DNA of 64,000 nt from Minisyncoccota bacterium (GTDB lineage: Bacteria; Patescibacteriota; Minisyncoccia; Phycocordibacterales; CSBR16-193): positions 395,095 to 459,094 of the forward strand of contig JBBDRA010000003.1 in NCBI GenBank assembly GCA_040905715.1, written 5' to 3'. The translations under genes and the position numbers were made by a program. Within the stretch, counting starts at the first letter, position 1; each line of letters begins with the position of its first letter. Shown here piece after piece: positions 25,125-43,049 of this stretch. Under the pieces are notes generated by a model. That model was not told the DNA's origin. It searched no databases and worked only from the letters and a program-made list of their open reading frames with translations.

Positions 25125-26564
25125 TTGAAAGCGTCATCCAGCATGGTAGGATACATACGACTTCATATGAGCACCACGGTAACTACACCCAAAAAAAGTA
25201 CGAGCGGACTGCGCGTCCCCCCGCAAAATATCGAGAGTGAACAAGCTTTGATCGGCTCTATTCTACTACGTCCGGAGGCCATGTACGAAGTGACCGATAT
25301 GGTAACCGCAAACTCTTTCTACGCCGATAAGCACCGCCTCATCTACGAGGCAATGATCGAGCTGTTTCAAAAACATGAACCGATCGACATGCTCTCGCTT
25401 TCAAACCGTCTCAAGGAAAAAGGTATACTTGACCAGATCGGTGGCAACGAGTATCTGACCGATCTCACAAACGCGGTCCCTTCCTCAGCCAACCTGAAAT
25501 ATTACGCCAAGTTAATACAGAAGAAATTCATGATGCGTGGTCTGATCGATGCTTCAGAGTTTATCGGTGCACTTGGGTACGATGACAACAGCGAACTCGA
25601 AGAGATCCTGGACAAGGCCGAAAAACGTATTTATGAACTCAGCAACGCTTCAGCAACGCACAAATTTGTTGAGATGAAGGACGAACTTACAGAGGCCTGG
25701 GAACGCCTCGACAAACTTCACAATTCAAAAGAAGATATTCGAGGTGTACCGACCGGCTTTCCAGCAATTGATAATACTATTGCCGGCCTACAGCCTTCTG
25801 ATCTTATTATTTTAGCCGCTCGTCCTTCCATGGGTAAGACCGCACTCGCACTTGATATCGCCCGCCAGGCTGCCGTTAACCATAATGTATCAGTTGGTAT
25901 CTTCTCACTCGAAATGAGCTCTCAGCAACTCGTAGACCGTATGCTCGCTGCCCAGGCTCTTGTTGATGCCTGGAAACTGCGTACCGGCAAACTCACCAGC
26001 GACGAGGATTTCAAATCGATTCAAGAATCCCTCGACAAGCTCTCTCGAGCACCTATCTATATTGACGACGAGGCAACCAACAACATCCTTAAGATGCGCT
26101 CTGTAGCCCGTCGGCTCAAGAGTGAAAAAGGGCTCGACCTTATCATCGTGGACTACCTGCAGCTTATGCAACCAATTGAATCACGAGGTAGCGACTCGAC
26201 CGTCCAGCAAATTACTGAGATCTCGCGAAGCTTGAAGCAGCTCGCACGTGAACTCGATGTGCCCGTTCTGGCTCTCTCTCAGCTTTCTCGTGCTGTTGAA
26301 CAGCGCGGCGGTCGACCGAAGCTATCTGACCTTCGTGATTCCGGTGCGATTGAGCAAGATGCCGATGTCGTGATGTTCATTCATCGTGAGAAGGGGCACG
26401 AGGCAGACGAGGACAACGACAACATTGCTGAAATCCTGATCGAAAAACACCGAAACGGTCCGACCGGTATCGCTCAGCTCCATTTCAATGACAAAAAATC
26501 TACCTTCCAGAGTATAGAGAAAGGTCAGTATGCCGGAGTCGAAGATGAATTCGCTAGCTTTTAA
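25125..26564 (+). CDS. dnaB: Replicative DNA helicase DnaB
   Basis: N-domain NIESEQALIGSILL; RecA core AARPSMGKTALALDIA (Walker A), IIVDYLQLM (Walker B), SQLSRAVEQR. The true start may be the internal Met at 25167. Confidence 0.9.
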   Translation: MKASSSMVGYIRLHMSTTVTTPKKSTSGLRVPPQNIESEQALIGSILLRPEAMYEVTDMVTANSFYADKHRLIYEAMIELFQKHEPIDMLSLSNRLKEKGILDQIGGNEYLTDLTNAVPSSANLKYYAKLIQKKFMMRGLIDASEFIGALGYDDNSELEEILDKAEKRIYELSNASATHKFVEMKDELTEAWERLDKLHNSKEDIRGVPTGFPAIDNTIAGLQPSDLIILAARPSMGKTALALDIARQAAVNHNVSVGIFSLEMSSQQLVDRMLAAQALVDAWKLRTGKLTSDEDFKSIQESLDKLSRAPIYIDDEATNNILKMRSVARRLKSEKGLDLIIVDYLQLMQPIESRGSDSTVQQITEISRSLKQLARELDVPVLALSQLSRAVEQRGGRPKLSDLRDSGAIEQDADVVMFIHREKGHEADEDNDNIAEILIEKHRNGPTGIAQLHFNDKKSTFQSIEKGQYAGVEDEFASF

Positions 26565-26610
26565 ATTAGACTCTACCGGCAGACAGAGTCTAATATCTAA
26601 CGTCTAACGC

Positions 26611-27240
26611 ATGTCTTCATTCGACAAACTTCAACAACTTCTTACAGAGCTTCCCGGCATTGGTCCACGTCAAGCGCAGCGTTTTGCTACTTTTCTTACC
26701 CGAAAAAACAGTGCCTACATCAATCAGCTTATACACGCACTGAATGATACCCGGTCGCACATGAAGCTCTGTACCGACAGCTATATGCTTTTTTATGCGA
26801 CAGACCCCAAACAAACACTTTCCCCTATTGCCCGCGATACCAATCGAGAAAAGAGTCAACTTCTCATTGTTGAAAAAGATGTTGACGTGACCCAGATCGA
26901 GCGAAGTAATTCGTATCACGGTCACTATTTCGTCATCGGCGGAACTGTTCCCTTTGTTGAATCAGATCCAAAGCAACAGATCCGTCTCAATGAGTTAAAA
27001 GCAGTGATCGAACGCAAAGTACCGGAAGGATTGAACGAGATAATACTCGGACTCTCAGCTACCCCTGAGAGCGAGCACACAGCAGCAATCCTCAAGGCAG
27101 AGCTTCAACCGATCGCTGAAAAAAATACCCTCACTATTTCCACACTCGGTCGCGGGCTTTCCACCGGTACCGAACTCGAGTACTCCGACGAGAATACGAT
27201 CAAATACGCGCTCAAAAATCGACAGTCTAGTGGTCAATAG
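26611..27240 (+). CDS. recR: Recombination protein RecR
   Basis: LPGIGPRQAQRFATFL HhH motif, C4 zinc finger region, Toprim (YFVIGGTV). Confidence 0.85.
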   Translation: MSSFDKLQQLLTELPGIGPRQAQRFATFLTRKNSAYINQLIHALNDTRSHMKLCTDSYMLFYATDPKQTLSPIARDTNREKSQLLIVEKDVDVTQIERSNSYHGHYFVIGGTVPFVESDPKQQIRLNELKAVIERKVPEGLNEIILGLSATPESEHTAAILKAELQPIAEKNTLTISTLGRGLSTGTELEYSDENTIKYALKNRQSSGQ

Positions 27241-27321
27241 CTACTTGATAATAGGTATCCCCACACTACGGTCGAAACTCCGACCCGAAGGGGTGTCAAC
27301 GTGGCATGTTGACACACAAAT

Positions 27322-27349
27322 GTCCTAACCCAGGGTTAGGACATTTTTT
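27322..27349 (+). terminator. Intrinsic terminator after recR
   Basis: GTCCTAACCCAGGGTTAGGACATTTTTTAT. Confidence 0.6.
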
Positions 27350-27353
27350 ATAC

Positions 27354-27376
27354 TAAAAAATCCGCTTCCGCGGATC
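27354..27376 (-). terminator. Intrinsic terminator after rplU (minus strand)
   Basis: Plus strand shows AAAAAATCCGCTTCCGCGGAT; on the minus strand this reads as stem ATCCGC/GCGGAT followed by a U-run. Confidence 0.55.
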
Positions 27377-27404
27377 CTTGCGCCTAAAGCCAAAAGCCTA
27401 ATGC

Positions 27405-27869
27405 CTATCTAATTGCTTCGATCTTCACCTTTATAAATTGCTGACGGTGTCCTTTCTGCTTGAAGTAACGACTCTTTGATTTATACTTGATAACATCTAC
27501 CTTCTTTGAGCGGCCTTTTGACTCGTAGATACCTTCAACTTTTGCTTTTTCAATAAATGGAGTACCGATCGTTGTGTCGCTTCCATTGTCAACAAAGAGT
27601 ACATTCTCAAATACTACTTTGTCTCCTTCTTTGAGCTCGTCGTTAAGCTTTTCAATAGTAATACTATCTCCCACAGCAACACTGTATTGCTTGCCACCAG
27701 TTTCGATAACCGCGAACTCGTCTGAGTTAGTCTTTGTTGCAGTCTTCTTCTTTGCTTCTTTTTTCGGGGCAGCTTTTTTTACAGCTGTCTTTTTAGAAGC
27801 TGTTTTGCTCGTTGATTTCTTGGTTGCTTTTGTCTTTTTCTCTGCCATATATGTCTCGCTATTGTACAT
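27405..27869 (-). CDS. rplU: 50S ribosomal protein L21 with ~50-aa lysine/alanine-rich N-terminal extension
   Basis: FAVIETGGKQYSVAVGDSITIEKL...GHRQQFIKVKIEAI is the L21 core, preceded by KKTKATKKSTSKTASKKTAVKKAAPKKEAKKK. Confidence 0.85.
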   Translation of the reverse strand: MYNSETYMAEKKTKATKKSTSKTASKKTAVKKAAPKKEAKKKTATKTNSDEFAVIETGGKQYSVAVGDSITIEKLNDELKEGDKVVFENVLFVDNGSDTTIGTPFIEKAKVEGIYESKGRSKKVDVIKYKSKSRYFKQKGHRQQFIKVKIEAIR

Positions 27870-27898
27870 ATTCCCTCAAAAAACGCAACATCTCGCCT

Positions 27899-29023
27899 CT
27901 ATTCTTCCCGCTCTTGGGGTCTGTCCAGCTGCATCCCCTCAACTCCACTTGCCACACCGGTGATCTTAGTCACATCCTTATCTATTTTTACCAACTCTTT
28001 ATCAGCAGCATTATAATGGTTTACGGTTGTTGAGAGTGACTTACCGATCTTTTTAAAATACTCATCATACCGATTAATATGACGTGAAAGTTCACCAACA
28101 TTCTTCTGTATTTGCTCGGCATTCTTTTCTATTTTAAAAGCATTAAAGCCATAGAGCACGGACTGTAAATACGCATAGAACGTAGTCGGTGAGACAATGA
28201 TCACTTTTTTGTCGTTCATTGCATAATCAACGAGGTTGCGAGCATTAACATCCAGCCCGCCGACTCTATTGACCAAAAGATCGTAATAAATCCCCTCCGC
28301 CGGTATGAACATGAACGCAAACGGCAGTGTTCCCTCCTTGGGCTTTATATACTTTGCAGTCTCATCTATACGTTTCTTGAGATCGTCCTTGAACTGTTTA
28401 ATGAACTGGTCCCGGCGCATTTCATCTTTCTCATTCGATAACTGACTGTAGCTTTCAAGCGAAAATTTAGCGTCCACTGGAATAATACCGTCACGTGCGT
28501 GAATGACAGCGTCGACCGCGGTGCCGTCGTCAAATCGATACTGAAGCTCATATACATCCGGGGGCAATATATTAGAAAGAATAAGGTCAAGACTGGCCTC
28601 CCCAAAATTTCCCCGCTCCTTCTGGCTTTTGAGCGTTCGCTGCAGATCTTGCAACTGCTCCGCAACCGTGAATATCTGATTTGAGCGCTCTTTCATCTCC
28701 ACCTGACCTTTTGAAACTTCGCTCAACTGCTTATTTACCTGTTCATTGATCTGCTGTATGAGTCGCTGTGAGTCATGGAACTGATTACGCACCGTATCAC
28801 TCATCTGCTTCGAGGTCTCGCCGATCTTGCTGTCGACCACCTTAGAAAGCTCATTCATCTGCTGAAGCACCAGCTCTAGCCCTTCCCCTTTTGGCGCCTG
28901 CTGCTTAAGCTGACGAAGTATGAGCCAACCGACGAACCCCACGGCTGCCATAATAGCGACACCAACAAATACAATCAATGTAGTCTCTGACATAGTGTGG
29001 TAAAGTATATCATGTATAGACAT
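27899..29023 (-). CDS. rmuC: DNA recombination protein RmuC
   Basis: N-terminal TM, long coiled coil, C-terminal RmuC nuclease-like region (FAFMFIPAEGIYYDL...VIIVSPTTFYAYLQ). Confidence 0.75.
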   Translation of the reverse strand: MSIHDILYHTMSETTLIVFVGVAIMAAVGFVGWLILRQLKQQAPKGEGLELVLQQMNELSKVVDSKIGETSKQMSDTVRNQFHDSQRLIQQINEQVNKQLSEVSKGQVEMKERSNQIFTVAEQLQDLQRTLKSQKERGNFGEASLDLILSNILPPDVYELQYRFDDGTAVDAVIHARDGIIPVDAKFSLESYSQLSNEKDEMRRDQFIKQFKDDLKKRIDETAKYIKPKEGTLPFAFMFIPAEGIYYDLLVNRVGGLDVNARNLVDYAMNDKKVIIVSPTTFYAYLQSVLYGFNAFKIEKNAEQIQKNVGELSRHINRYDEYFKKIGKSLSTTVNHYNAADKELVKIDKDVTKITGVASGVEGMQLDRPQEREE

Positions 29024-29043
29024 TTCATCTAATCACCACCTAT

Positions 29044-29502
29044 ATGTCACTTCAGCAACAAATAAAAGACGACCTCAAAGCATCAATGCGCGAGAAAAAC
29101 GCAGTAAAAGTAAGCGTACTCCGCAATATAACCAGCGAGATAACCAACCAACTTCTTAAGGAAGGTCAGACCCCACAAGGAGCACTCGCCGACGAAAGCG
29201 TTCAGAACGTCATTGAGCGTCTGGCTAAACAGCGTCGCGAATCAGTTCAACAATATGAGCAGAACGATCGACCAGAGGCAGCCCTACAGGAAAAGCAAGA
29301 ACTAGAGGTACTTGAAGCCTATCTTCCCGAAAAAATGAGCGAAGATGAGGTACGTGTCATTGTTATAGAAAAGATCAAAGAGACTGGCGCAAGCTCTCCT
29401 TCAGATATAGGTAAAGTAATGGGTCCGATAATGCAAGCCCTAAAAGGTAAAGCCGACGGTGAAACAGTAAAGAAAGTGGTAACAGAGGAACTGTCAGCCT
29501 AG
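29044..29502 (+). CDS. GatB/YqeY-domain protein
   Basis: IKDDLKASMREKNAVKVSVLRNITSEI...AYLPEKMSEDEV...IGKVMGPIMQALKGKADG shows the YqeY family pattern. Confidence 0.75.
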   Translation: MSLQQQIKDDLKASMREKNAVKVSVLRNITSEITNQLLKEGQTPQGALADESVQNVIERLAKQRRESVQQYEQNDRPEAALQEKQELEVLEAYLPEKMSEDEVRVIVIEKIKETGASSPSDIGKVMGPIMQALKGKADGETVKKVVTEELSA

Positions 29503-29595
29503 ATTGACAGTCTTTTATAATAGTCGTAGTATTATAACGGGGTACACATCGTAGTGTACAGCACATGACAGTGACAATTTCTGAAGGGGCTCACC

Positions 29596-29778
29596 ATGAG
29601 CGAACGAAACGATGACCAAGCTCCGCGCCCGGAAGAGGATGGCAAAGGTCTCCTGGAGGCGCTTGAAAACTCCACTCAAGGACTGTCCGATGATTGGCTC
29701 TTTCCAGGCGCCACCGGAAGAAAACGCTCGTCTCCCCTTACTCCCAATGACGAACTCGACAGACAATCTGCGGGTTAA
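29596..29778 (+). CDS. Orphan acidic small ORF (60 aa) in a GC-rich islet
   Basis: RBS-like GAAGGGG 6 nt upstream; no recognisable domain; overlaps an alternative +1-frame ORF (29612-29902), so coding status is uncertain. Confidence 0.2.
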   Translation: MSERNDDQAPRPEEDGKGLLEALENSTQGLSDDWLFPGATGRKRSSPLTPNDELDRQSAG

Positions 29779-29799
29779 ACATTTGTACGGAGATCTGAC

Positions 29800-30036
29800 A
29801 TGTACCACGGCAGACAGGAAACTGCTTCGCTCGACCGATTTGATATCGCGCGCGAGGTGGTACGGAATCGAAACGCACGACGGAGAGACGACAGGCCACT
29901 GATAGAGCTAGGTACCCACATTAGAGAAGTGCTTCGAATGCACTCTCTTGATGCGGGTGACGTAGCTCTTATCCGGTCCGTCCGTCGGGCGGTTCTAGAT
30001 CAAGAAGAAGATCGTTCCGGTTTGTTCCCCGGATAA
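29800..30036 (+). CDS. Orphan Arg-rich small ORF (78 aa) in a GC-rich islet
   Basis: ACGGAG 7 nt before ATG; followed at ~30040-30100 by two GC hairpins and a T-run (terminator); no recognised domain. Confidence 0.2.
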   Translation: MYHGRQETASLDRFDIAREVVRNRNARRRDDRPLIELGTHIREVLRMHSLDAGDVALIRSVRRAVLDQEEDRSGLFPG

Positions 30037-30542
30037 ACAAACCGATACGGTTTATCCGCCCAATCCCCCGCATAGGCGACGCCTATCCGCGGGGTTTTTT
30101 CTATTTTATTTTCAGGGATAATTATCCCACTATCCTCAAACCACACGCCGGTATCAGGTATCGAAGGTAATCCATGTATTGATCTATCTATACCAAGATC
30201 TCTGGTTAACTTACCTGGACCGTTAAAACCTTCTACACCACGAATAAGCACCGCGGAGGGATACCCCCTCTCCCCCGTCACTATATTGAGCATATGGTAC
30301 ATTCCATACACGAGATACACATAAAACACACCGCCCTCCCTATACATTACTTCTGTACGAGCAGTTCTGCCCTTTGAGGCATGGCACGCAAGATCATTTT
30401 GCCCGTCATACGCCTCCACCTCGGTTATACAATACCGTTCAACACCATCCTCCCTTGCTAGCACAAGGTACTGACCTAGTAGTTCCGGAGCAACTTTCAA
30501 AACAGGGCGTTGAAACCATTCTTTCGATAGGATTGTACTCAT
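30000..30542 (-). CDS. mpg: DNA-3-methyladenine glycosylase (Mpg/AAG family)
   Basis: FQRPVLKVAPELLGQYLV...ITEVEAYDGQNDLACHASKGRTARTEVMY...YVYLVYGMYHMLNIV...AVLIRGVE is the AAG-family core. Start at the second Met; the ORF track's first Met at 30566 falls inside the plus-strand -35 box. Confidence 0.8.
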   Translation of the reverse strand: MSTILSKEWFQRPVLKVAPELLGQYLVLAREDGVERYCITEVEAYDGQNDLACHASKGRTARTEVMYREGGVFYVYLVYGMYHMLNIVTGERGYPSAVLIRGVEGFNGPGKLTRDLGIDRSIHGLPSIPDTGVWFEDSGIIIPENKIEKTPRIGVAYAGDWADKPYRFVYPGNKPERSSS

Positions 30543-30559
30543 GGAAAAACAGGTAATAA

Positions 30560-30587
30560 TTGACATTTAGTCAAAAAAGATTATAAT
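30560..30587 (+). promoter_or_regulatory. Near-consensus sigma70 promoter with no downstream ORF
   Basis: TTGACA (30560-30565), 16-nt spacer, TATAAT (30582-30587). Confidence 0.5.
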
Positions 30588-30595
30588 AGCTGATG

Positions 30596-30872
30596 GAGTC
30601 GACGAGAAAGACATGCTGGAATAGAGATTGCGTATCAGTCTCTACATCTGAAGGGATTCCAGCCCAAGGCAAATGTTCTTTGGTCATTCGTGATCCAGCA
30701 AGTTAACGGCGCAGCATACGCGTCTATAATCGCAGTGAGATATGCTTGAATCATACATGGACTTGCTCGGAAACTCGGATGCCCGAAAAGGAGCCTGTCA
30801 TGGACTTCTAAAGAAACATGACTAGCGACTACGCCCCGGATAAGACAACATCTTATCCGGGGCAATTTTTTT
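30596..30872 (+). ncRNA. Candidate ~275-nt small RNA (orphan promoter-to-terminator unit)
   Basis: Bounded by the promoter above and by the intrinsic terminator CCCCGGATAAG-acaacat-CTTATCCGGGG+T7 (30833-30872). Longest ORF inside is 10 aa. Internal stems include GCTGGAAT...ATTCCAGC. Confidence 0.3.
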
Positions 30873-30876
30873 AAAA

Positions 30877-31650
30877 TTATTCCTCCTCACCTGCTGCACT
30901 TTTTTTCTTTGTATCGTACACAAAATTAATAAGGCTGCGTATAGTTTCCGCAAACTCAGGGCTTTGAATATACACGCCCGACACAGTATCCCCTAGAATA
31001 CTCACTCTTACCTTATCTCCAAAAACCCCCACGTCACATTGAATCGGATACTTTGAAGCATCAAGCCAAACAGCTTCACTTTTTTCTTGCTTAGGTAAAA
31101 CATTCTTTTCTTTGGATGTATAAACAGCTCGAGCGGAGACGCCGCGGTCGAGGCGTATTTGCCGGTAACGATCTCTCTCTTGCTTCGTAAACTTTTCCTG
31201 CAACATATCAAATGGGAAAAGAATATGAAGCATCTTGTCCTCCGACTCTGACCGACTAAACTCATCGAGAATACTAAGGACTCCCTCGTGTCCTTCATAA
31301 TATTTCACAACAGGTCGCTCTCCTGTTCCGCGTTGCATACTTCTTAGTTGCGGAATAACATCACTTTTCAGCTCTTTTGACTGTTCGTTGAGCTCCTGTT
31401 TCCGACGCTCCACGTATGTCTCAAGCCGCTCCGGTGACTCTGCTTGAAACTGTGTCCGCTTCCCTACCGTCGTCTCACTTACTAGCCCCTTCTCTGCCAG
31501 CGACTCTATGATCACATAGACAGTCGGACGCTTAATATCTGTCGTACGGGACAACTCTGTCGCCGACGCAGAATCAACTTGCAATAAAGCCAAATACACT
31601 TTGGCTTCTTTTTCGCTCATTCCCAGATTTTGGAGGTTTTTTTCCAACAT
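30877..31650 (-). CDS. TrmB-family transcriptional regulator (paralogue 1)
   Basis: N-terminal wHTH LGMSEKEAKVYLALLQVDSASATELSRTTDIKRPTVYVIIESLAEKGLV plus a C-terminal TrmB effector-like domain. Confidence 0.7.
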   Translation of the reverse strand: MLEKNLQNLGMSEKEAKVYLALLQVDSASATELSRTTDIKRPTVYVIIESLAEKGLVSETTVGKRTQFQAESPERLETYVERRKQELNEQSKELKSDVIPQLRSMQRGTGERPVVKYYEGHEGVLSILDEFSRSESEDKMLHILFPFDMLQEKFTKQERDRYRQIRLDRGVSARAVYTSKEKNVLPKQEKSEAVWLDASKYPIQCDVGVFGDKVRVSILGDTVSGVYIQSPEFAETIRSLINFVYDTKKKSAAGEEE

Positions 31651-32043
31651 ATTTCCTAAAAATAGCGTCTATTTCATGTGTTTACTATACCATAGTTATG
31701 CTACTTTTTACAAGAATTGTTGTATGACAAAAATTGCATTTAGTGACAATTTGTGATAATATAAAAAATGGAGGTTCGATGAAAGACAGGGCAAAAACAC
31801 GGGGTTTTTGCCTAGGTGTGGAGGACTGTCCATTGTGTTGATGGAACAAAAGTAGTTTCCTCTACATGCTGCCTTTCATTGTAGGTTCTTTCATGGGTAT
31901 TAGCCCAGCGCTCAGCTGATCTGGGACACCGCCCGAGAAAGGAGCGAAAGAGGCATGGATGTATAACATCCCCGAACAAGGCCCGGCGAATCTAATTCGC
32001 CGGGCCATTTATTTGTTTCTACCTTGTACTCTGACTTTTATAC

Positions 32044-32826
32044 TTATGCGTTTTCCTCACTTTCTTTTTTACTTTTCTTATATTCAAATGCCAAATTAAA
32101 AAGTGTGCCGAGCGTTTCTGCTATGTCTTTACTATGTATAACTATGCCGGTTATATCACCGCCGAGCGTATTAATACGAACTCGATCTTTATAAATACCA
32201 ATATCGCAACTAATTGGATACTCCTGACCTTCAATACGATATTGATTTACCATTTTATCTGATGGCAACTCCGCACCACTGTATACATACAGAGCTTTTG
32301 AACTCGCACCATTTTTTAATCGTAAATGTCTAAAGTCGTCTAGTTCGTGCTCGGAGAAACGACTTTCAACCAGATCTTTATCATAAACGGTATAGGCAGG
32401 TCCTTCAGTTTTTTCACCACCTTGATACTCCTCTTGTATTGCACTTAGAGCACCTTTCTTTCCGGTATAATACTTCACAACAGGCTTCTCCCCTTCACTC
32501 AACTCAATACTCTTAAGCTTAGGGATTAAATCATGAGTTAGTGATTCCTCATGATTTTTTAAACTTCGGATTCGCTGAGAGAGATATACCTCCAATCGCT
32601 CCGGTGACTCCGCCTGATAATGCGTTCGTTTTCCGACTGTTGTTTCACTTACTACCCCTTTCTCTGCAAGTCCTTCAATTGTTGAATAAACAGTCGGGCG
32701 CTTAATTCCGGTTGCTCGAGCTATTTCAGTGGCAGAAGCGTTATTAACTTTTAACAACATTACATAAACTGTCGCTTCTTTTGCTGTAAATCCTATTTTT
32801 TTTAGATAGTCTTCCATAAAAATCAA
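32044..32826 (-). CDS. TrmB-family transcriptional regulator (paralogue 2)
   Basis: IGFTAKEATVYVMLLKVNNASATEIARATGIKRPTVYSTIEGLAEKGVV; clearly related to the upstream paralogue (PERLE.Y, PVVKYY, C-terminal blocks). Confidence 0.7.
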   Translation of the reverse strand: MIFMEDYLKKIGFTAKEATVYVMLLKVNNASATEIARATGIKRPTVYSTIEGLAEKGVVSETTVGKRTHYQAESPERLEVYLSQRIRSLKNHEESLTHDLIPKLKSIELSEGEKPVVKYYTGKKGALSAIQEEYQGGEKTEGPAYTVYDKDLVESRFSEHELDDFRHLRLKNGASSKALYVYSGAELPSDKMVNQYRIEGQEYPISCDIGIYKDRVRINTLGGDITGIVIHSKDIAETLGTLFNLAFEYKKSKKESEENA

Positions 32827-32984
32827 AACTCCCGCGTTTATGTTATTGGTAATTCCTACTTACCTAGTTATGACACTTAAAAACCAAAAGTGTTACAAAA
32901 AAGTACATTATATTTTTCATAGTGTCCGATAGAATAATCAGAAAAGCGCTTTGACAAACAGTAGTCAGTCGCAAAAAATGAATT

Positions 32985-33012
32985 TTGACAATTCAAATAA
33001 ATTGAGTATAAT
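32985..33012 (+). promoter_or_regulatory. Consensus sigma70 promoter for the lipoprotein gene
   Basis: TTGACA (32985-32990), 16-nt spacer, TATAAT (33007-33012), about 48 nt before the ATG at 33061. Confidence 0.55.
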
Positions 33013-33060
33013 TTCTAAATCGTGTTCTTTTGTTTTGAAACCACCAGTGAAGGTTAACGC

Positions 33061-33393
33061 ATGTTGAAGATATCAGTACTTACCGTTTCGATTTTAGCCC
33101 TAATCACTCTTGGCACAGGAGGATGTGCCAGCGTCACAGACGTGCAAAGCGTCCAAGGTAACCGTTGGATGCATGAGTTGGAAGGTGAACTTCTGGCAAA
33201 GCGCTACATGAGCGATTACGACCAAACGTTCGCTTACATCAGACGGCAGGTCGACGATCAGGACATCGTTGAGGCATGGACAGCAAATCCATACGACATG
33301 GAGGGGCCGTACAAGGTGGCGCAGATGCTGTACAGCCAGTACGACATCGAGAAAATGGACATCCTGGTGAACATGAACCTGAGTAACAAGTGA
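33061..33393 (+). CDS. Small lipoprotein, unknown function, atypical composition
   Basis: Signal peptide plus lipobox ITLGTGGC; GC about 52% with CTG/GTG/CAG-rich codons, unlike neighbours; own promoter and terminator. Confidence 0.5.
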   Translation: MLKISVLTVSILALITLGTGGCASVTDVQSVQGNRWMHELEGELLAKRYMSDYDQTFAYIRRQVDDQDIVEAWTANPYDMEGPYKVAQMLYSQYDIEKMDILVNMNLSNK

Positions 33394-33418
33394 AGCAGAG
33401 ACCGGCGATCTCTGTCCG

Positions 33419-33450
33419 GCACGCATAGCAATATGCGTGCTGATTTTTTT
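33419..33450 (+). terminator. Intrinsic terminator
   Basis: GCACGCATAGCAATATGCGTGCTGATTTTTTT. Confidence 0.6.
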
Positions 33451-33613
33451 ACATAAAGATCTACCTTATCGGTAAGCTAAAAATTTTATGAGCCTATAAG
33501 AATCGGTGGAGCTCACAACAAAAGCCGGAACGCATTCGCGTATCCGGCTGGCTGATTTGTGATGATGTACTAGCCTTTGCTCGAACCCATTTCGAGGAAA
33601 GACTAGTACATCA

Positions 33614-33744
33614 TCACAAAAAGAAACTTCCTCGGCGCAAAGCGCCAACTCGCGCCTACGGCGCGGAATGTGGGGAGCCAAAATACCACGTCGCTTCGCG
33701 ACGAATTGGGACGGGACGGGCGCGCCGAAGCGCGCGGATTTGTC
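33614..33744. repeat. 131-bp inverted repeat, left copy (IR-L)
   Basis: Exact reverse complement of 35160-35290, verified block by block; about 62% GC; made of four short GC hairpins. Confidence 0.9.
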
Positions 33745-33770
33745 TTTGTTTCGTATCTAAAAACTTTTAT

Positions 33771-35348
33771 ATGATCAAACCAAAATATTTTCTATACGCT
33801 CGCAAGAGCACTGAAGATGATGATAAGCAGGTGATGTCTATCGAGGCACAGTTGTTTGAGCTTCGTGAATTTGCGCGTAAAGAAAATCTTGAAATCCTAA
33901 CGGAGTTTCAAGAGTCGAAAAGCGCAAAGACTCCTGGACGTGAGCAGTTTGCGGAAATGATGACGCGCATTGAAGCGGGAGAAGCACAGGGTATTCTCTC
34001 GTGGCACCCAGACCGTTTAGCCAGAAATAGTATCGATGGAGGGCGCGTCATTTATGCTGTCGATACTTCCAAGATATCGTCTTTGCGCTTTCCGACATTT
34101 TGGTTTGAACCCACCCCGCAAGGGCTCTTTATGTTGCAAGTGGCGTTCGGACAATCGAAATATTATTCAGACAATCTGACGCAGAATGTGAAGCGCGGGA
34201 TGCGCCAAAAAGTTCGGCGAGGCGAGTGGCTCACCAAAGCTCCCTTTGGCTATGTGAACAATCCACGTACGAGAAATATCGAACCGCATCCAGTTCATAG
34301 CAAGATCATTGTGAAAGCGTTTGAGGAATACGCCAAAGGTGAGCATGGATTGGTTTCGCTCGCCGACTTTTTGGCGCTGCATGGAGTAACTACCCAGAAA
34401 GGAACGCCACTTGGCAAAGCTTCCATCAAACGAATGCTGACGAACCGAGCATATCTTGGATTTGTCCGTCATCATGGCGAATGGTTTGACGGAAGCTTTG
34501 CGCCAATTATTTCCCCGAAATTGTTTGAAGCCGTACAAAAAGTATTGTCGGCAAGAGAACGTCCTCGCAAGCGGAAAGTGAAGCATGACTTTCCCTTTGT
34601 TGGTATTTTTGAGTGCGGTGAGTGTGGGAGCATGTTCACGGCACAGTGGGCTACGGGCAAGTGCGGAGGAAAGTATCGGTATTATCGTTGTACCAAAAAG
34701 AAAGGGTCATGCTCCCAAGGATATGTGCGTGAGGACGTTCTCGCCGACCAAGTAAAGGAACAGCTTCAAACAATTTCGATTTGCGATGCATACACTGATT
34801 ATATGCTCGACAAAGTCGAGGAAATGGAGAAAACAGAAAATACTGCATCGCAAAGCGGTGTCCAAAATCTTTCCGATAGAATCAAAGCCAGTGAGGCACG
34901 CATGGATAAGCTAGTCGGTGCATATCTTGATGGCGACATTCCGCGAGACATCTACACCAAGAAAAAAGACGAGATCATGCGTGCCACCCTTGCTTTGAAA
35001 GAGGAAAAGAAAGATTTTGCACACCAAGGAAATAATTGGGTCGAACCCCTGCGGGAGTGGATTTTAGATACGAAACAAGCCACCTTTTTATCCTCATCCG
35101 ACAATTTCCCTGAAATTGCCTCCTTCGTCAAAAAAGTTGGAACGAACCCCTTGGTTCGTGACAAATCCGCGCGCTTCGGCGCGCCCGTCCCGTCCCAATT
35201 CGTCGCGAAGCGACGTGGTATTTTGGCTCCCCACATTCCGCGCCGTAGGCGCGAGTTGGCGCTTTGCGCCGAGGAAGTTTCTTTTTGTGACCCTACGGGG
35301 AATCGAACCCCGGTTTCATCCGTGAGAGGGATGTGTCCTAGCCGCTAG
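33771..35348 (+). CDS. Large serine recombinase (resolvase/invertase N-domain + recombinase domain + zinc ribbon)
   Basis: YARKSTEDDDKQVMSIEAQ carries the catalytic Ser; GILSWHPDRLARN; recombinase domain; C4 ribbon CGECGSMF...CTKKKGSC; coiled-coil tail. The last ~43 codons are encoded by IR-R. Confidence 0.85.
   Translation: MIKPKYFLYARKSTEDDDKQVMSIEAQLFELREFARKENLEILTEFQESKSAKTPGREQFAEMMTRIEAGEAQGILSWHPDRLARNSIDGGRVIYAVDTSKISSLRFPTFWFEPTPQGLFMLQVAFGQSKYYSDNLTQNVKRGMRQKVRRGEWLTKAPFGYVNNPRTRNIEPHPVHSKIIVKAFEEYAKGEHGLVSLADFLALHGVTTQKGTPLGKASIKRMLTNRAYLGFVRHHGEWFDGSFAPIISPKLFEAVQKVLSARERPRKRKVKHDFPFVGIFECGECGSMFTAQWATGKCGGKYRYYRCTKKKGSCSQGYVREDVLADQVKEQLQTISICDAYTDYMLDKVEEMEKTENTASQSGVQNLSDRIKASEARMDKLVGAYLDGDIPRDIYTKKKDEIMRATLALKEEKKDFAHQGNNWVEPLREWILDTKQATFLSSSDNFPEIASFVKKVGTNPLVRDKSARFGAPVPSQFVAKRRGILAPHIPRRRRELALCAEEVSFCDPTGNRTPVSSVRGMCPSR
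35160..35290. repeat. 131-bp inverted repeat, right copy (IR-R)
   Basis: See IR-L; its terminal TGA (35288-35290) is also the discriminator plus last two acceptor nucleotides of tRNA-Glu. Confidence 0.9.
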
Positions 35349-35359
35349 ACGATAGGGTC
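35288..35359 (-). tRNA. tRNA-Glu (anticodon CTC)
   Basis: Reverse complement GACCCTA-TC-GTCT-AGCGGCTA-GGAC-A-CATCC-CTCTCAC-GGATG-AAAC-CGGGG-TTCGATT-CCCCG-TAGGGTC-A: a 72-nt cloverleaf with Glu-type architecture; CCA not encoded. Confidence 0.85.
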
Positions 35360-35713
35360 AGTGTTTGTATTGTATCAGAACCTTGCGGGTTCGATTCCAA
35401 AGGAATCGGTCACACTAATTTAAGGCTTAAAATGAGGCCCACGTATGAAAAAATATAACACACAACACTCGTGCCATCAACACTCTCCTAAGCATACCCC
35501 GTGCGATTCAGAACAGTCCAGACTCTACGTTATACTTTGTCCCAACTTGATCATACTTAATCACCCTAATCCCAAAGGTTACAGCAAGAGTGTTTGGAAA
35601 GTAATTAGGCGTATTCCTCCTTCAATCACCCCTCATCGATGACTTTTCTATGTAGTCTTCTCAGGTGGTTGGGCTTGGGTCTGGGCCTGAGAAGACTACA
35701 TGGAAAGGCATCT

Positions 35714-37015
35714 TTACTCACCCTTCCACTCACTTCCCTGCCTGACCAAGAGCTCATCGGCTCTCATCGGTTCTGCCATTACCTCTTCGACCACTTTTTC
35801 ACATCGTACCGCTTGAGAACCCTTCACAAGTACCACGTCACCCGCTTCCAGAACCTTCTCAAGCTCTTTTCCCGCCTTTTGAGCATCATCAAAGGAAAAC
35901 ACCTTGCTCTCGCTCATGCCTGCGCTTAGTGCTCCTTCAGCGATTGCGCGCGCATCGACACCTACGGTAAACAGAGTATCGCAAAAACTTGCTGCTTGTT
36001 CTCCAACATTCATATGCGCTGTCTTAGAATGCTCTCCCAGCTCGCGCATGTCACCAAGCACAGCTATTCGATGGTTTGGAACCCGTATCTCCTTGAGTAC
36101 ACTCAACGCTTCCTGAACCGCGACCGGCGAAGCATTATACGAATCGTCGATTATAAGTGAATTTTTTATCCCACGCAAAAGATTCATTCTCCCTTGTGGA
36201 GGAGCGTGTTTGGCCAGCGCCTGTGCGATTGTGATCAGATTCATTTGCTGACTGACACCGACCGCAACCGCAGCAAGCACCGGATAGATGTGCTGAAGAC
36301 CGAGCACTCCCTGAAGCATAACCGGCACTGAGCTGCCGTTTGTATTTGCTTTTACACTAACACCAGCGGGCATCTCTATCTTTTCCTGGCTCTGATACAC
36401 CACCGACTCATGAGACGCAAAAACATGCGCTTGGCTGTGAAAACCGTAATATAAAACACTGCCATTCGCATGACGAGCAAAGTCCCGAACATCACTATCG
36501 TCATAGTTAAGTATTGCTACACCCTCCTTTTTCACGGCCCGGATAAGCTGGCTTTTTTCCTCGATCAGCTGTTCTCGTGAACGAAAGAATTCAATATGAA
36601 CCGGCGTCTCACTGAGGCGTGTGACGATAGCTATATCTGGTTTGAGCCAGCGGGTAATTGAGCGAATATCTCCGGGCCGATCTGCTCCCACTTCAAGAAC
36701 AAGCCATTCAGGATATGAGCCCGGAAACACGATCATCGTTGCCCCTTTGAAGATGGTTACGATCCAATGCAGTGGATTGCTCCAGCCACTAGAGCGACCA
36801 ATGATCGTGAGTGGAACACCGATCTCGCTGTTATAACTTTTTTGACTTTTGCGGATGGTATATGTTGCCGAAAGAACTGTTGCAACAGCATCTTTGGTTG
36901 ATGTTTTACCTACACTTCCGGTAACCGCTACGATCCGCGGCTGAAAACGGCGAAGAATAGCACGGGCTTCCCAGGTTATGATCTTTATAATAATACGTTT
37001 GAGTATTTGTTTCAT
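35714..37015 (-). CDS. murF: UDP-MurNAc-tripeptide--D-Ala-D-Ala ligase
   Basis: Mur ligase ATP site VAVTGSVGKTSTKD; central and C-terminal Mur-ligase domains; position in the dcw block. Confidence 0.85.
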   Translation of the reverse strand: MKQILKRIIIKIITWEARAILRRFQPRIVAVTGSVGKTSTKDAVATVLSATYTIRKSQKSYNSEIGVPLTIIGRSSGWSNPLHWIVTIFKGATMIVFPGSYPEWLVLEVGADRPGDIRSITRWLKPDIAIVTRLSETPVHIEFFRSREQLIEEKSQLIRAVKKEGVAILNYDDSDVRDFARHANGSVLYYGFHSQAHVFASHESVVYQSQEKIEMPAGVSVKANTNGSSVPVMLQGVLGLQHIYPVLAAVAVGVSQQMNLITIAQALAKHAPPQGRMNLLRGIKNSLIIDDSYNASPVAVQEALSVLKEIRVPNHRIAVLGDMRELGEHSKTAHMNVGEQAASFCDTLFTVGVDARAIAEGALSAGMSESKVFSFDDAQKAGKELEKVLEAGDVVLVKGSQAVRCEKVVEEVMAEPMRADELLVRQGSEWKGE

Positions 37016-37051
37016 AGTGCAGAATAGTAAAGCGAAGTTGTAAGGATAGAG

Positions 37052-38761
37052 CTATCGGTCAGGCGGAACTTCGTAATAATTTATTAAATAAGTTATCAGA
37101 TCCATAAACGGGTCTGTCAGTGTTTGTGAAGCGTACTGGGTTCCTTGCGGTTCGATCGTGTACAGGAACACAAGAAACTTGGGGTCGTACGCGGGGGCAT
37201 ACCCGAAAAACGAGTGAAGGTATTTATTCTCATAGTAACCGCTACCGCCAACAATTGGGATCTGAGCTGTGCCGGTCTTTGCCGCTATTGAGTGGCGATC
37301 ACGTGCATGTTCGCCACCAGCTAATGCTTCATCGACAACATTCACCAGCATCCTGGTAATAGTCTCTGACGTAGTTGGATCGATCACTTGTTCACCGACA
37401 TCCGGCACCAGTGACGTTGACCCGCCAATATCATAAACGATCTTCCTGCCAACATGAGGTGTCACAAGGCGACCTCCATTTGCCAGAACAGCAAGGGCGC
37501 GTGTCGTACTGATCGGTGACATAGCGATTCCTTGCCCGTATGACGCAGTAGCAACTTCAATATCTCGAGCTGTTTCCAGGTTACTGATCAATCCGCTTGT
37601 CTCGCTTGGTAGATCAATTTTGGTTTTCTCGCCAAGTCCGAAGGCCCGCATTTTATTAGCAAACCTCTCAACATCTACTTGCTGAGCAACAAATGCTGAT
37701 CCGGTATTAAGTGATTCATTGAGAACATCCTGCATTGACACAATACCTCGGCCAACACCGTCGTAGTTCTTTATTGTATATCCGCTTAATTCAAGAAATC
37801 CTTTGTCATTGTATGTAGTGTCAGGTGTGATTGCGCCGGCATCGAGCCCGATCGCCATAGTTATCGGTTTTATGATCGACCCCATTTCATGAACATTCTC
37901 GATAAGTGGATTCTTGAACATCGACTGATCTGTACCACTGCGATCGTTGGGATCATACGTTGGATCTACTGCCATCGCCAGTATCTGACCGGTTGCAGGA
38001 TCCATAATAATGCCACCCGTCAAACGAGAATTCCAGGTATTCGATATCTTTTCTAGCTGACTTTCGAGAAGAGCCTGGACGTTCGGCTCAATACCGGTAA
38101 CAATGCTACCTTGCTTTGCTGATCCTTGAAATATCGTGTCCTTCATATTTGAGAACACCTCGGCAAAGAAATTTACATGAAGCTGACTATTGCCGCGCCT
38201 TAAGACTTCTTCATAAAACCTCTCAAGTCCGTATTGACCGACGTTTTTACCGTCCTGATACCCTACGATCCCAAGCGTGTGAGCTGCCATTGAATCGCCC
38301 GGATAATGCCGCCATTTCTCCTTATAAAGCTGCACACCTTCAAGTGGCAGTTCATCGAGAGCATCAGCTGTTACTCTATCGAGACGTTTTGCTATCTCCT
38401 CGTAGGGATCATCTTCTTTGGCCGCCTTTTCTAAAAAAGATTCCTTTTCTATATCAATAATTGAACTCAGGAGTCTATAGGTCTCCTCAGGTCTACTGAC
38501 TTGCTGAGGATTTATCGCGACAGTAAAACCGGAATCGAGAGTTGCCGCCGGGAGTGGCTCGCCGTCATGCGGTTGAAAGTATATAGTACCTCTATTATAC
38601 AAGTTGTGATTGGGGCGAACATACTGATGATCTGCCTCTTCACTGTACTGAGCTCCATTAACGATCTGAACGAGATACAATTTCCCGACCAGCCCGATAC
38701 CAACAAGTATTACTAAAAATAGAAGTGCTCGAATTCGACCTGTTGATCCAATAACCGCCAT
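37052..38761 (-). CDS. ftsI: Penicillin-binding protein (class B transpeptidase, FtsI-type)
   Basis: N-terminal TM anchor, dimerisation domain, GSIIKP (SxxK), SLN and KTGTA motifs. Confidence 0.8.
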   Translation of the reverse strand: MAVIGSTGRIRALLFLVILVGIGLVGKLYLVQIVNGAQYSEEADHQYVRPNHNLYNRGTIYFQPHDGEPLPAATLDSGFTVAINPQQVSRPEETYRLLSSIIDIEKESFLEKAAKEDDPYEEIAKRLDRVTADALDELPLEGVQLYKEKWRHYPGDSMAAHTLGIVGYQDGKNVGQYGLERFYEEVLRRGNSQLHVNFFAEVFSNMKDTIFQGSAKQGSIVTGIEPNVQALLESQLEKISNTWNSRLTGGIIMDPATGQILAMAVDPTYDPNDRSGTDQSMFKNPLIENVHEMGSIIKPITMAIGLDAGAITPDTTYNDKGFLELSGYTIKNYDGVGRGIVSMQDVLNESLNTGSAFVAQQVDVERFANKMRAFGLGEKTKIDLPSETSGLISNLETARDIEVATASYGQGIAMSPISTTRALAVLANGGRLVTPHVGRKIVYDIGGSTSLVPDVGEQVIDPTTSETITRMLVNVVDEALAGGEHARDRHSIAAKTGTAQIPIVGGSGYYENKYLHSFFGYAPAYDPKFLVFLYTIEPQGTQYASQTLTDPFMDLITYLINYYEVPPDR

Positions 38762-42310: not shown

Positions 42311-42778
42311 CTACGAAATATCTTTTATAACATAACTCTTAGCCCCACCCGGTGTTTGGGCAACCACCTCGTCGCCTTTCTTTTTACCAAAGATCACCTC
42401 ACCGATCGGTGATTTAATTGATATCTTACCCTGTGTTGTGTCTGCTTCTTCAGTTCCTACGATCGTAAATTCTTGAGTTTTTCCTTTTTCCTTCTGGACC
42501 AAAACAACATGCGACCCTACGGTTACCGAATCTACTCCGTGAGTAGAGACGATCTCAGCGTTCTTCAAAAGATGTTCGAGGTGCGCAATACGATCCTCAA
42601 CTTTAGCTTGCATGTCACGTGCCTCCTGGTACTCTGCGTTCTCAGAAAGGTCGCCAAGTGACTTGGCGTATTCGAGCTGATCAGCAACTTCCTTGCGACG
42701 ACGTGTCCGTAGATATTCAAGTTCGTCTTGCACTTCCTGATGCTTTTCCGGAGTTAAATATTCTTTCTCATCAGCCAT
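42311..42778 (-). CDS. greA: Transcription elongation factor GreA
   Basis: LTPEKHQEVQDELEYLRT...LSENAEYQEARDMQ coiled coil with conserved acidic tip; FKBP-like C-domain. Confidence 0.85.
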   Translation of the reverse strand: MADEKEYLTPEKHQEVQDELEYLRTRRRKEVADQLEYAKSLGDLSENAEYQEARDMQAKVEDRIAHLEHLLKNAEIVSTHGVDSVTVGSHVVLVQKEKGKTQEFTIVGTEEADTTQGKISIKSPIGEVIFGKKKGDEVVAQTPGGAKSYVIKDIS

Positions 42779-43049
42779 GAAATGAAAGTTAGTTCGTAAT
42801 TTTACTATATTCTCTCCTCGCCAGGTTTTAAAAAAGCCCGCGTTCTGCGAGTAGTCAGTAAGTACTTATCTTGTTGAAGACCACTAACTACCCTATTACT
42901 GTCATATCTGTGACGGTAATAAACGCGGCGCCCTTAAAACCAAGGCTTGAATGTAGTCTCATTCTTTTCATCCCGTCTATTATAACGAGGAGTTTATTGT
43001 ATTGTCAATGTTTTTATGTGTGCGCACAGAAAACCAAAAATATTTAGCT

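Follow-up and report, generated by a model that had tools for sequence, protein, structure and literature searches.

A predicted plus-strand transcription unit beside TrmB-like regulator genes in a Minisyncoccota genome: a possible atypical copy of a regulator-linked mini-ORF RNA class in Patescibacteria

Introduction

What is made from a consensus promoter and a strong terminator that appear to enclose no gene? The question is raised by a short interval (positions 30560-30872) in a 64,000-nucleotide (nt) stretch of a Minisyncoccota bacterium genome (contig JBBDRA010000003.1 of GenBank assembly GCA_040905715.1, positions 395,095 to 459,094), the whole of which we refer to as the window and in whose coordinates positions are given. 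The interval lies between mpg, the gene for a 3-methyladenine DNA glycosylase, and the first of two genes for TrmB-like regulators. A sequence-only reading of the window had proposed that it may specify a novel small RNA (sRNA) with no open reading frame (ORF). The analyses reported here suggest that it may instead be a sequence-diverged copy of an RNA class that is linked to TrmB-like regulator genes in Patescibacteria and built around ORFs of a few codons (mini-ORFs). Members of the Candidate Phyla Radiation have tiny genomes and few regulators, and to our knowledge almost nothing is known of regulatory RNAs or small translated ORFs in this group.

The Interval as a Predicted Transcription Unit

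The features recognized in the interval were as follows (SD, Shine-Dalgarno sequence; aa, amino acids).

30560-30587, plus strand: promoter, with -35 TTGACA at 30560-30565, a 16-nt spacer and -10 TATAAT at 30582-30587; 12/12 match to the sigma-70 consensus
30593-30706, plus strand: 37-aa ORF that starts at the predicted transcription start and would need leaderless translation; not supported as a gene
30595-30598, plus strand: GGAG at the predicted RNA 5' end, 14 nt from the next ATG, in the place of the mini-ORF1 SD of locus L109 (TATACTAGCAGATGGAGG)
30613-30624, plus strand: three-codon ORF MLE (ATG CTG GAA TAG) within the hairpin 5' arm, a possible degenerate mini-ORF1
30615-30663, plus strand: hairpin, GCUGGAAU...AUUCCAGC around AGAGAUU/AGUCUCU
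30703-30730, plus strand: second, weaker promoter-like site inside the unit (TTAACG-16-TATAAT, 10/12)
30800-30811, plus strand: three-codon ORF MDF (ATG GAC TTC TAA) with AAGGAG at 30788-30793 and a 6-nt spacer, at the mini-ORF2 position
30833-30872, plus strand: intrinsic terminator, a 13-bp stem (30833-30863) with 8 G-C pairs and a loop of 5, then T7 at 30866-30872

The promoter had been ranked among the best sigma-70 sites of the window, and counting supported that ranking: the exact string TTGACA-16-TATAAT occurs three times in the 64 kb, against 0.03 occurrences expected from shuffles, and none of 100 shuffled sequences reached three. Two further perfect-consensus promoters are present, one at 32985-33012, which precedes a 110-aa lipoprotein-like ORF (33061-33393) without a family match, and one at 42979-43008 on the minus strand, upstream of an ORF at 42311-42778. 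Because the copy at 32985 adjoins a real-looking gene, perfect-consensus promoters appear to be used in this genome. In addition, the sequence ATTATAAT (30580-30587) is its own reverse complement, and the minus strand therefore has a TATAAT directed towards mpg and located about 38 nt ahead of its start (30542); the promoters of mpg and of the unit may overlap back to back and compete.

The terminator was as textbook-like as had been described. On the minus strand its hairpin is followed by GUAGUCGC rather than a U-run, which indicated that it serves the plus-strand transcript. The T-run ends 5 nt from the stop codon (30877-30879) of the convergent TrmB-like gene. Together, these features predict an independent plus-strand transcription unit of about 280 nt made up of a perfect promoter, the RNA body and an intrinsic terminator of its own. 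The next genes downstream are on the minus strand, so that, as the sequence-only reading had stated, there is nothing for the unit to regulate in cis. A riboswitch or leader element was rejected as there is no downstream gene on the same strand and no match to a riboswitch family.

Structure and Coding Content of the RNA

The predicted RNA has no counterpart among known RNA families. At the gathering score, Rfam 15 identified nothing beyond two tRNAs in the whole window, and relaxed covariance searches (E of at most 10 over 29400-31000, E of at most 1 over 26000-38000) returned chance matches only. A diverged housekeeping RNA that the models had missed (transfer-messenger RNA (tmRNA), 6S RNA, signal recognition particle (SRP) RNA or RNase P RNA) is an explanation to which we give almost no credence. 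It draws on the length of the unit and on the impression of a tmRNA-like 5' end in the sequence-only reading, which had also raised the possibility of a 6S-like RNA. Neither suggestion survived: ARAGORN identified no tmRNA in the window, none of these RNAs was matched by Rfam even at E of at most 10 over the 1.6 kb around the unit (which also led us to reject SRP RNA and RNase P RNA), and the minimum free energy (MFE) fold is multibranched with no rod shape and no tRNA-like 3' end. Moreover, the element was unmatched at the same place in the sister species described below.

The fold of the whole RNA had a z-score of -4.4 with the terminator and of only -1.7 without it (-0.15 for the minus strand), and the apparent structure is thus largely derived from the terminator. 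The stems that the sequence-only reading had pointed out, GCTGGAAT/ATTCCAGC (30615-30622/30656-30663) and AGAGATT/AGTCTCT (30623-30629/30637-30643), were both present in the MFE fold, and the CATGGACTT direct repeats were located at 30756-30764 and 30799-30807.

The statement that the longest ORF of the interval has 10 aa was incorrect. The plus strand has ORFs of 37 aa (30593-30706) and 22 aa (30757-30825), and the minus strand has ORFs of 76 aa (30635-30865) and 38 aa. These raise the possibility that the unit is the mRNA of a real small protein, either the 37-aa or the 76-aa product. A leaderless start at the ATG at 30593 is conceivable, as it lies 5 nt after the -10 hexamer, and two more distant TrmB loci (L132 and L143) carry ORFs of 32-41 aa in the equivalent unit. 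Against this, no gene was called in the interval in six public assemblies, tblastn searches with the 37-, 22-, 38- and 76-aa peptides against 92 loci gave only chance matches, and a phmmer search of 1.84 billion representative sequences matched the 76-aa product only to long repetitive proteins, with E values no better than about 1e-5. No longer ORF in the interval has coding support, and we regard a conventional small protein as very unlikely.

Units Beside TrmB Homologues in Metagenomic Loci

With an alignment of TrmB homologues, 80 metagenomic loci were fetched, and the DNA downstream of each TrmB gene was scanned. Promoters were accepted if they had a perfect TTGACA and at least 10/12 matches, and 32 loci had both a TrmB at least 39% identical to that of the window (39-57%) and enough flanking DNA. 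In the lead locus, L082 (TrmB 57% identical to that of the window), the opposite strand has a 12/12 promoter at 455-482 nt beyond the TrmB stop and a terminator that overlaps this stop. Near-consensus promoters on the opposite strand were found in 26/32 loci, 20-650 nt past the TrmB stop and mostly at 230-530 nt, and in most of these loci an opposite-strand terminator lay between -14 and +53 nt from the stop. The location beside the TrmB regulators, to which the sequence-only reading had drawn attention, therefore matters: equivalent units adjoin TrmB homologues in other Patescibacteria. Nucleotide searches (nhmmer) with the window unit, the L082 unit and a second unit of the window (described below) found no match in 82 TrmB loci. 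No third gene conserved beside the TrmB/unit pair was found; a candidate gene cluster from nine loci consisted of one ClpP gene and artefacts antisense to TrmB and was rejected. TrmB relatives were absent from a scan of viral contigs.

Comparison of these loci revealed a canonical layout. A near-consensus promoter, often with an extended -10, is followed by a first mini-ORF (mini-ORF1) that has an extended SD (typically AAAGGAGGTG), a spacing of 4-8 nt, ATG or GTG, a variable codon, GAC or GAT, and a stop, and that encodes MGD, MND, MSD, MHD, MFD, MED or MWD. A spacer of 3-30 nt leads to a hairpin of 12-17 bp and then, usually, to a second strong SD, an ORF of 3-7 codons starting Met-Gly-Asp (mini-ORF2), and the terminator abutting the regulator gene. 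The family consensus can be written AAAGGAGGUG-N5-AUG-NNN-GAC-stop.

The strict form of this motif (SD-N3-9-ATG/GTG-NNN-GAY-stop) is tightly linked to the regulator genes. It was found at 25 distinct sites in 20 loci, all on the strand opposite TrmB and at most 600 nt past its stop (43.6 kb), and it was found neither on the TrmB strand of the same 600-nt zone nor inside TrmB genes (63 kb). Elsewhere in the loci only three sites occurred in 234 kb, in L137 and L164, and these proved to be complete units, each with promoter and terminator, that immediately precede TrmB and are read in the same direction. Past the terminator of such a tandem unit comes a separate promoter for the regulator. The constant is thus adjacency to the regulator gene and not convergence with it.

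These arrangements bear on the possibility that the unit is a convergent antisense or transcription-interference partner that limits TrmB mRNA, either by collision or through a 3'-end duplex that RNase III would cleave, on the pattern of Bacillus type I toxin-antitoxin (TA) systems. The window unit does converge on TrmB and its terminator ends 5 nt from the TrmB stop. In several relatives the final TrmB codons and the terminator overlap (-8 to -14), and TrmB genes were usually found to lack a terminator on their own strand. The tandem units of L137 and L164, upstream of TrmB and with their own terminators, show that antisense overlap is no constant of the family, and an antisense role would leave the conserved mini-ORFs unexplained. 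We therefore consider this explanation distinctly improbable for the window unit.

Several other observations were made in these loci. The more distant L132 and L143 (TrmB about 36% identical) have convergent units with ORFs of 41 and 32 aa, ending ...ESGGGY and ...SGDGSGW, in place of three-codon ORFs, and other distant loci have the peptides MGTGY, MSMGVGY, MGGGS and MMIGGFGG; with their Gly-rich sequence and an aromatic or acidic residue at the C terminus, these short peptides appear to form a graded series with MGD. In L092, a called 141-aa gene opposite TrmB (977-1402) covers a canonical mini-ORF unit (GGAGGTGACACATGGGGGACTGA and hairpin) and is probably a spurious call. Matches to the hammerhead type III ribozyme, below the gathering score of 48.5 bits, occur in long stretches poor in ORFs that lie past the mini-ORF units of two TrmB loci (L097 2191-2245, 46.3 bits, and 2529-2591, 31.2 bits; L096 2011-2065, 37.4 bits), and no hammerhead was found in the window (26000-38000, E of at most 1). 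In L082, a divergent 12/12 promoter (5899-5926) reads into about 400 nt (5930-6330) with repeated GATCGGTGACA motifs that resemble iterons or operators and an AT-rich palindrome, and the neighbouring genes look phage- or plasmid-like (STIV_B116-like). The first ~70 bases of the L108 contig, in unit orientation, are Illumina adapter contamination (AATGATACGGCGACCACCGAGATCTACAC...).

Translation Signature and Conserved Hairpin

Codon use was compared across the strong-SD short ORFs of the TrmB loci. Glycine at codon 2 is specified by all four of its codons (GGC 17, GGT 10, GGA 9, GGG 5), aspartate at codon 3 by GAC (33) and GAT (10), and all three stops occur (TAA 52, TGA 40, TAG 30); because of this variety of glycine codons and stops, the mini-ORFs are probably translated. 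In addition, the related units L100 and L108 differ in mini-ORF2 by two synonymous changes (GGC GAC and GGA GAT). Such a codon pattern is predicted by selection on translation and not by selection on the RNA sequence as such.

The segment that follows mini-ORF1 is strongly structured, with z-scores below -2 for the 70 nt after the ORF in 25 of 26 loci (mean -4.8). A plain, unfitted MAFFT alignment of 15 units (A4) contained a 14-bp helix in which 13 of the 14 pairs change on both sides. In this alignment 72.9% of cells were paired, in comparison with 41-49% when the 3' partners were slid by 1-3 columns, and none of 500 shuffles reached the observed values. A frequent sequence in the hairpin loop is YCAUAG, the complement of the CUAUGG that spans the start codon, and the loop/start duplexes within the same locus were stronger than in all 5000 permutations. 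Informative cases are L082, in which a GUG start is accompanied by CAC in the loop, L105 (CCUAUGCA with UGCAUAGG) and L116. These findings are suggestive of a pseudoknot between the loop and the start codon in roughly 10 of 24 loci. We also considered whether the hairpin 5' arm, which is pyrimidine-rich in 22 of 26 loci, mimics the anti-SD and pairs with the mini-ORF1 SD; the mean energy (-6.35 vs -5.6 kcal/mol) was no better than that of shuffled arms, pairing was strong in only a few loci (L091, L092, L094 and L095), and the idea was rejected.

A covariance model of the SD, mini-ORF and hairpin (R1) was built from A4. It recovered L091, L164, L108, L103/L104, L092 and L110, which were not in the seed and scored 21-43 bits, as well as second modules within units. 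The canonical units had no match to an Rfam 15 family, and no description of such units was found in the literature.

Relationship of the Window Unit to the Mini-ORF RNAs

The window contains two units to be compared with the canonical ones, as a second unit (unit 2) lies between its two TrmB-like genes.

31734-32006, plus strand: unit 2
31770-31774 and 31779-31841, in unit 2: mini-ORF1 region, GGAGG, 4 nt, then ATG AAA GAC AGG... (MKD without a stop, 20 aa)
31938-31944 and 31955-31966, in unit 2: mini-ORF2, AAAGGAG, 10 nt, then ATG GAT GTA TAA (MDV), about 14 nt before the terminator
31980-32006, plus strand: unit 2 terminator, 38 nt from the stop of the second TrmB-like gene

The position and architecture of the first unit (hereafter the window unit) agree with those of the family. 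Its terminator lies 5 nt from the TrmB stop, within the family range (-14 to +53 nt), its 12/12 promoter points at the regulator gene from 290-317 nt past the stop (family typically 230-530), and its length is within the family range. Between the hairpin and the terminator there is a second strong-SD mini-ORF, AAGGAG-N6-ATG GAC TTC TAA, which ends 22 nt before the terminator. The SD/start region of this mini-ORF resembles that of mini-ORF2 in L102 (AAAGGAGCCAATCATGG; AAAGGAGCC..TCATGG), and the 5' end of the unit, TATAATAGCTGATGGAG, parallels TATACTAGCAGATGGAGG of L109, whose GGAGG is the SD of mini-ORF1. The closest homologues of the window TrmB (L082, L091 and L092, 54-57% identical) all carry canonical units. 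Both units of the window share one layout, AAAGGAG...ATG GAY NTN TAA about 20 nt before the terminator; in unit 2 the stop after MKD is replaced by AGG, and a 9-bp hairpin (GGCAAAAAC/GUUUUUGCC) follows.

Several results weigh against the assignment. The strict Met-X-Asp-stop motif was not found anywhere in the window; the variants present in the window unit are MLE and MDF. R1 scored 6.7 bits (E=2) on 30782-30866 and 4.7 bits (E=7) on unit 2, and local alignment of the window unit to family units was no better than that of shuffled sequences. The distance from GGAG to the ATG of MLE is 14 nt. The 70-nt segment from 30614, in which the hairpin overlaps the MLE mini-ORF, is weakly structured (z=-2.4, family mean -4.8). 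Because the sequence tests of the family failed, homology has to be argued from position and architecture.

Close relatives added a further point against the assignment. Contigs of the same population (L081 and L083-L088) were identical to the interval apart from a 1-nt deletion in the terminator loop (L087) and an N-gap (L083/L084), a scaffold gap that starts in the terminator loop; because of this identity, covariation cannot be read for this copy. The nearest other organism is a sister species (L089), whose mpg is 70% identical and which keeps the two small ORFs next to mpg as well as YqeY, RmuC, L21, RecR and DnaB. There, an nhmmer search of the ~190 nt present between mpg and the upstream contig end did not recover the element, and the interval from mpg to the end of a co-oriented ORF is only about 125 nt long; the element is thus not conserved by synteny in the closest available relative. 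Similarly, none of 80 genome loci collected by way of mpg, the closest of them with mpg 62-70% identical, had an nhmmer match to the element. As a separate observation, breaks or gaps in public assemblies of this population coincide exactly with the terminator hairpin or with the beginning of the TrmB region (30848-30880), a hint that strains differ to the right of the terminator.

The same discrepancies are what would be expected if the window unit were a decaying relic of a canonical Met-X-Asp unit, still transcribed but no longer doing the job of the family: the strict motif is absent, the spacing of the first SD is wrong, the hairpin is weak and R1 gives E=2, the stop after MKD is missing in unit 2, the region is accessory and the element is unmatched in the L089 sequence available upstream of mpg. 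However, selection would be needed for a 12/12 promoter and a perfect 13-bp terminator to persist, and the series AAGGAG-N6-ATG-two codons-stop is intact. Furthermore, that both window units share one variant layout suggests a maintained variant rather than random decay. We judge decay to be unlikely on this evidence.

A somewhat stronger, though still unlikely, competitor is an ordinary lineage-specific sRNA that acts in trans by base-pairing with mRNAs, the tiny ORFs of this copy being incidental. A promoter and terminator without a gene are the hallmark of sRNAs, moderate structure of the body is confined to the plus strand (z of -1.7 vs -0.15), no Rfam family matches and the longer ORFs are without coding support. 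Against it, what is conserved at the core of the equivalent units in relatives is evidently translated mini-ORFs and not a single-stranded seed. In addition, the complementarity of the unit to the translation-initiation regions of window ORFs, measured as duplex energy, was equalled or bettered by 18 of 40 shuffled RNAs.

Based on position and architecture, we consider the window unit to be probably a diverged homologue of the canonical units, one that may or may not still work as they do. The fuller reading, that the interval is an atypical, sequence-diverged copy of an apparently undescribed class of regulator-linked mini-ORF RNAs in Patescibacteria, absent from Rfam 15, is one that we put forward tentatively, at a little under even chances. 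Of the original proposal of a novel sRNA beside TrmB, the novelty, the stand-alone plus-strand unit and the TrmB neighbourhood held up. The absence of ORFs did not, since three-codon ORFs with ribosome-binding sites are present, and neither did the purely non-coding reading: the RNA of the unit is probably translated because the equivalent units in other Patescibacteria are built around mini-ORFs.

Genomic Context

The window belongs to a metagenome-assembled genome of Candidatus Paceibacterota (Patescibacteria). The unit is located in the gene order DnaB, RecR, L21, RmuC, YqeY, a 500-nt stretch with two small ORFs, mpg (minus strand), the unit, TrmB-like 1 (minus strand), a 393-nt gap, TrmB-like 2 (minus strand), a lipoprotein-like ORF, a serine recombinase and tRNA-Glu. 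Its immediate neighbours are the following.

30000-30542, minus strand: mpg, 3-methyladenine DNA glycosylase, divergent neighbour, 180 aa as annotated in public records
30877-31650, minus strand: TrmB-like regulator 1, convergent partner, 257 aa, with a winged helix-turn-helix (wHTH), a long helix and a PLD-like C-terminal domain
32044-32826, minus strand: TrmB-like regulator 2, 260 aa, 43% identical to regulator 1

The real start of mpg is probably at 30542. Regulator 1 has the same sequence as an NCBI protein encoded on a 523-kb contig. The structural model of regulator 1 (pLDDT 90) had a full-length Foldseek match to archaeal TrmBL2 (E about 1e-12) and also matched TrmB (3qph). Sequence searches agreed with the structural match for the N-terminal wHTH, and the C-terminal domain of the predicted model also matched the PLD-family fold (Zucchini). 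No TPR domain was present in the model.

In the gap between YqeY and mpg (29503-30036), a promoter-like TTGACA-17-TAGTAT (29504-29532) directly follows the YqeY stop, and two ORFs preceded by SDs encode products of 60 aa (29596-29778) and 78 aa (29800-30036, overlapping the mpg 3' end). Both ORFs were called in Logan contig L086, and the 78-aa one also in L084. Neither product had a Pfam or NCBIfam match, and for the 78-aa product there is weak conservation at the corresponding position of L089 (tblastn E=3e-4). The best match of R1 in the window is at the start of the 60-aa ORF (29578-29665, 16 bits, E=0.005; AAGGGG-N6-ATG AGC GAA CGA). A plus-strand terminator-like hairpin, CCCCGCATAGGCGACGCCTATCCGCGGGG with T6, lies at 30065-30100 inside the 3' coding region of the minus-strand mpg. 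It is placed to stop a convergent transcript of YqeY and the small ORFs, and L089 has a comparable hairpin with a T-run at the equivalent position.

On the other side, a 131-nt perfect inverted repeat (33614-33744 and 35160-35290) flanks the serine recombinase gene (33771-35348), and its right arm abuts or overlaps tRNA-Glu (35287-35359, minus strand). This repeat may reflect an invertible segment, duplication of an attachment site or an error of assembly. Direct repeats that might mark an island boundary were looked for near the unit, and none were found.

Proposed Mechanism

We propose that the unit and the convergent TrmBL2-like regulator gene form a two-gene module. The RNA of the window unit would be made and ribosomes would load on AAGGAG-N6-AUG, the start of the MDF mini-ORF. 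Local regulators commonly control an adjacent gene, and on that ground we infer that the TrmB-like protein would control the otherwise constitutive-looking promoter of the unit. The RNA would act through being translated and not through base-pairing with targets.

Two versions of this model can be considered. In the first, the unit would be a regulator-controlled minigene that ties up ribosomes or tRNA-Asp, a version suggested by the conservation of an Asp codon just before the stop and by the maximal SD. In the second, the tripeptide would be read by the C-terminal domain of the regulator and would feed back on it, in keeping with the conservation at the amino acid level, the variable middle residue and the other short peptides of distant loci. 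Since some units converge on TrmB and others precede it in tandem, no single mechanism in cis fits all of them, which weighs against the model.

In its general form, the model describes a two-gene system of Patescibacteria in which a TrmBL2-like DNA-binding protein is paired with a highly expressed transcript whose product would be the translation of three-codon ORFs (fMet-X-Asp, Met-Gly-Asp and others) from a start gated by a hairpin or pseudoknot. The system would serve as a throttle on ribosomes or tRNA-Asp, or as an intracellular tripeptide signal perceived by the PLD-like domain, and the units of the window would be a lineage-specific Met-Asp-X variant. We offer this as a possible account, one that we would sooner expect to be revised than upheld.

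Comparison with Known Systems and Significance

Of known systems, the minigenes of the lambda bar type are similar in having a strong SD and two or three sense codons before a stop (AAGGAG-N6 and MDF in the window), and in the conserved identity of the last sense codon, here Asp; high expression of the units would also be expected. Minigenes that sequester tRNAs have been discussed (PMC2490762), and a minigene acts in the axe-txe toxin-antitoxin operon (PMC8708949). In contrast to lambda bar, the units described here are dedicated, terminator-bounded transcripts with conserved hairpins, are linked to TrmB-like genes and show conservation over a phylum-level group. Toxicity and peptidyl-tRNA drop-off are traits of minigenes, and the likeness of the units to these is one of sequence layout only.

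Dual-function sRNAs (SgrS/SgrT, RNAIII/hld and SR1/SR1P) are likewise short, stand-alone transcripts with their own promoter and terminator that are both structured and translated, as the units probably are. However, they encode peptides of 26-43 aa and have base-pairing seeds, whereas the units have ORFs of 3-7 aa and no evident seed or target. Leader-peptide and upstream-ORF attenuators, including antibiotic-sensing ones, share an SD with a very short ORF, alternative RNA structures and a terminator, and the complementarity of the hairpin loop to the start-codon region in many units is in the same vein. Unlike attenuators, convergent units have no downstream gene on the same strand, and the regulator of tandem units has its own promoter past the terminator.

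The Rgg/SHP, PlcR/PapR and AimR/AimP cassettes resemble the module in the close pairing of a transcription factor gene, in one orientation or the other, with a gene for a tiny peptide whose sequence varies between loci. They differ in that the regulator here is a TrmBL2-like wHTH/PLD-like protein and not a TPR protein as in the RRNPP family, and in that peptides of 3-7 residues leave no room for export or processing signals. Finally, the txpA/RatA type I TA system of Bacillus is similar in that a strongly transcribed sRNA of about 200-300 nt converges on a protein gene and the 3' ends abut. The partner in the window is a 257-aa DNA-binding protein rather than a small membrane toxin, the terminator of the unit ends 5 nt from the TrmB stop and, in the family, tandem arrangements exist.

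The covariance model and the strict sequence motif can now be used to catalogue the family. For annotation, these units explain the "empty" DNA after these regulator genes, as well as spurious ORF calls there such as the 141-aa one of L092. If the proposed reading is correct, a stand-alone transcript organised around three-codon ORFs and tied genetically to a single regulator family would represent a novel regulatory device, and the mini-ORFs would be among the clearest cases of purifying selection on an ORF of tripeptide length.

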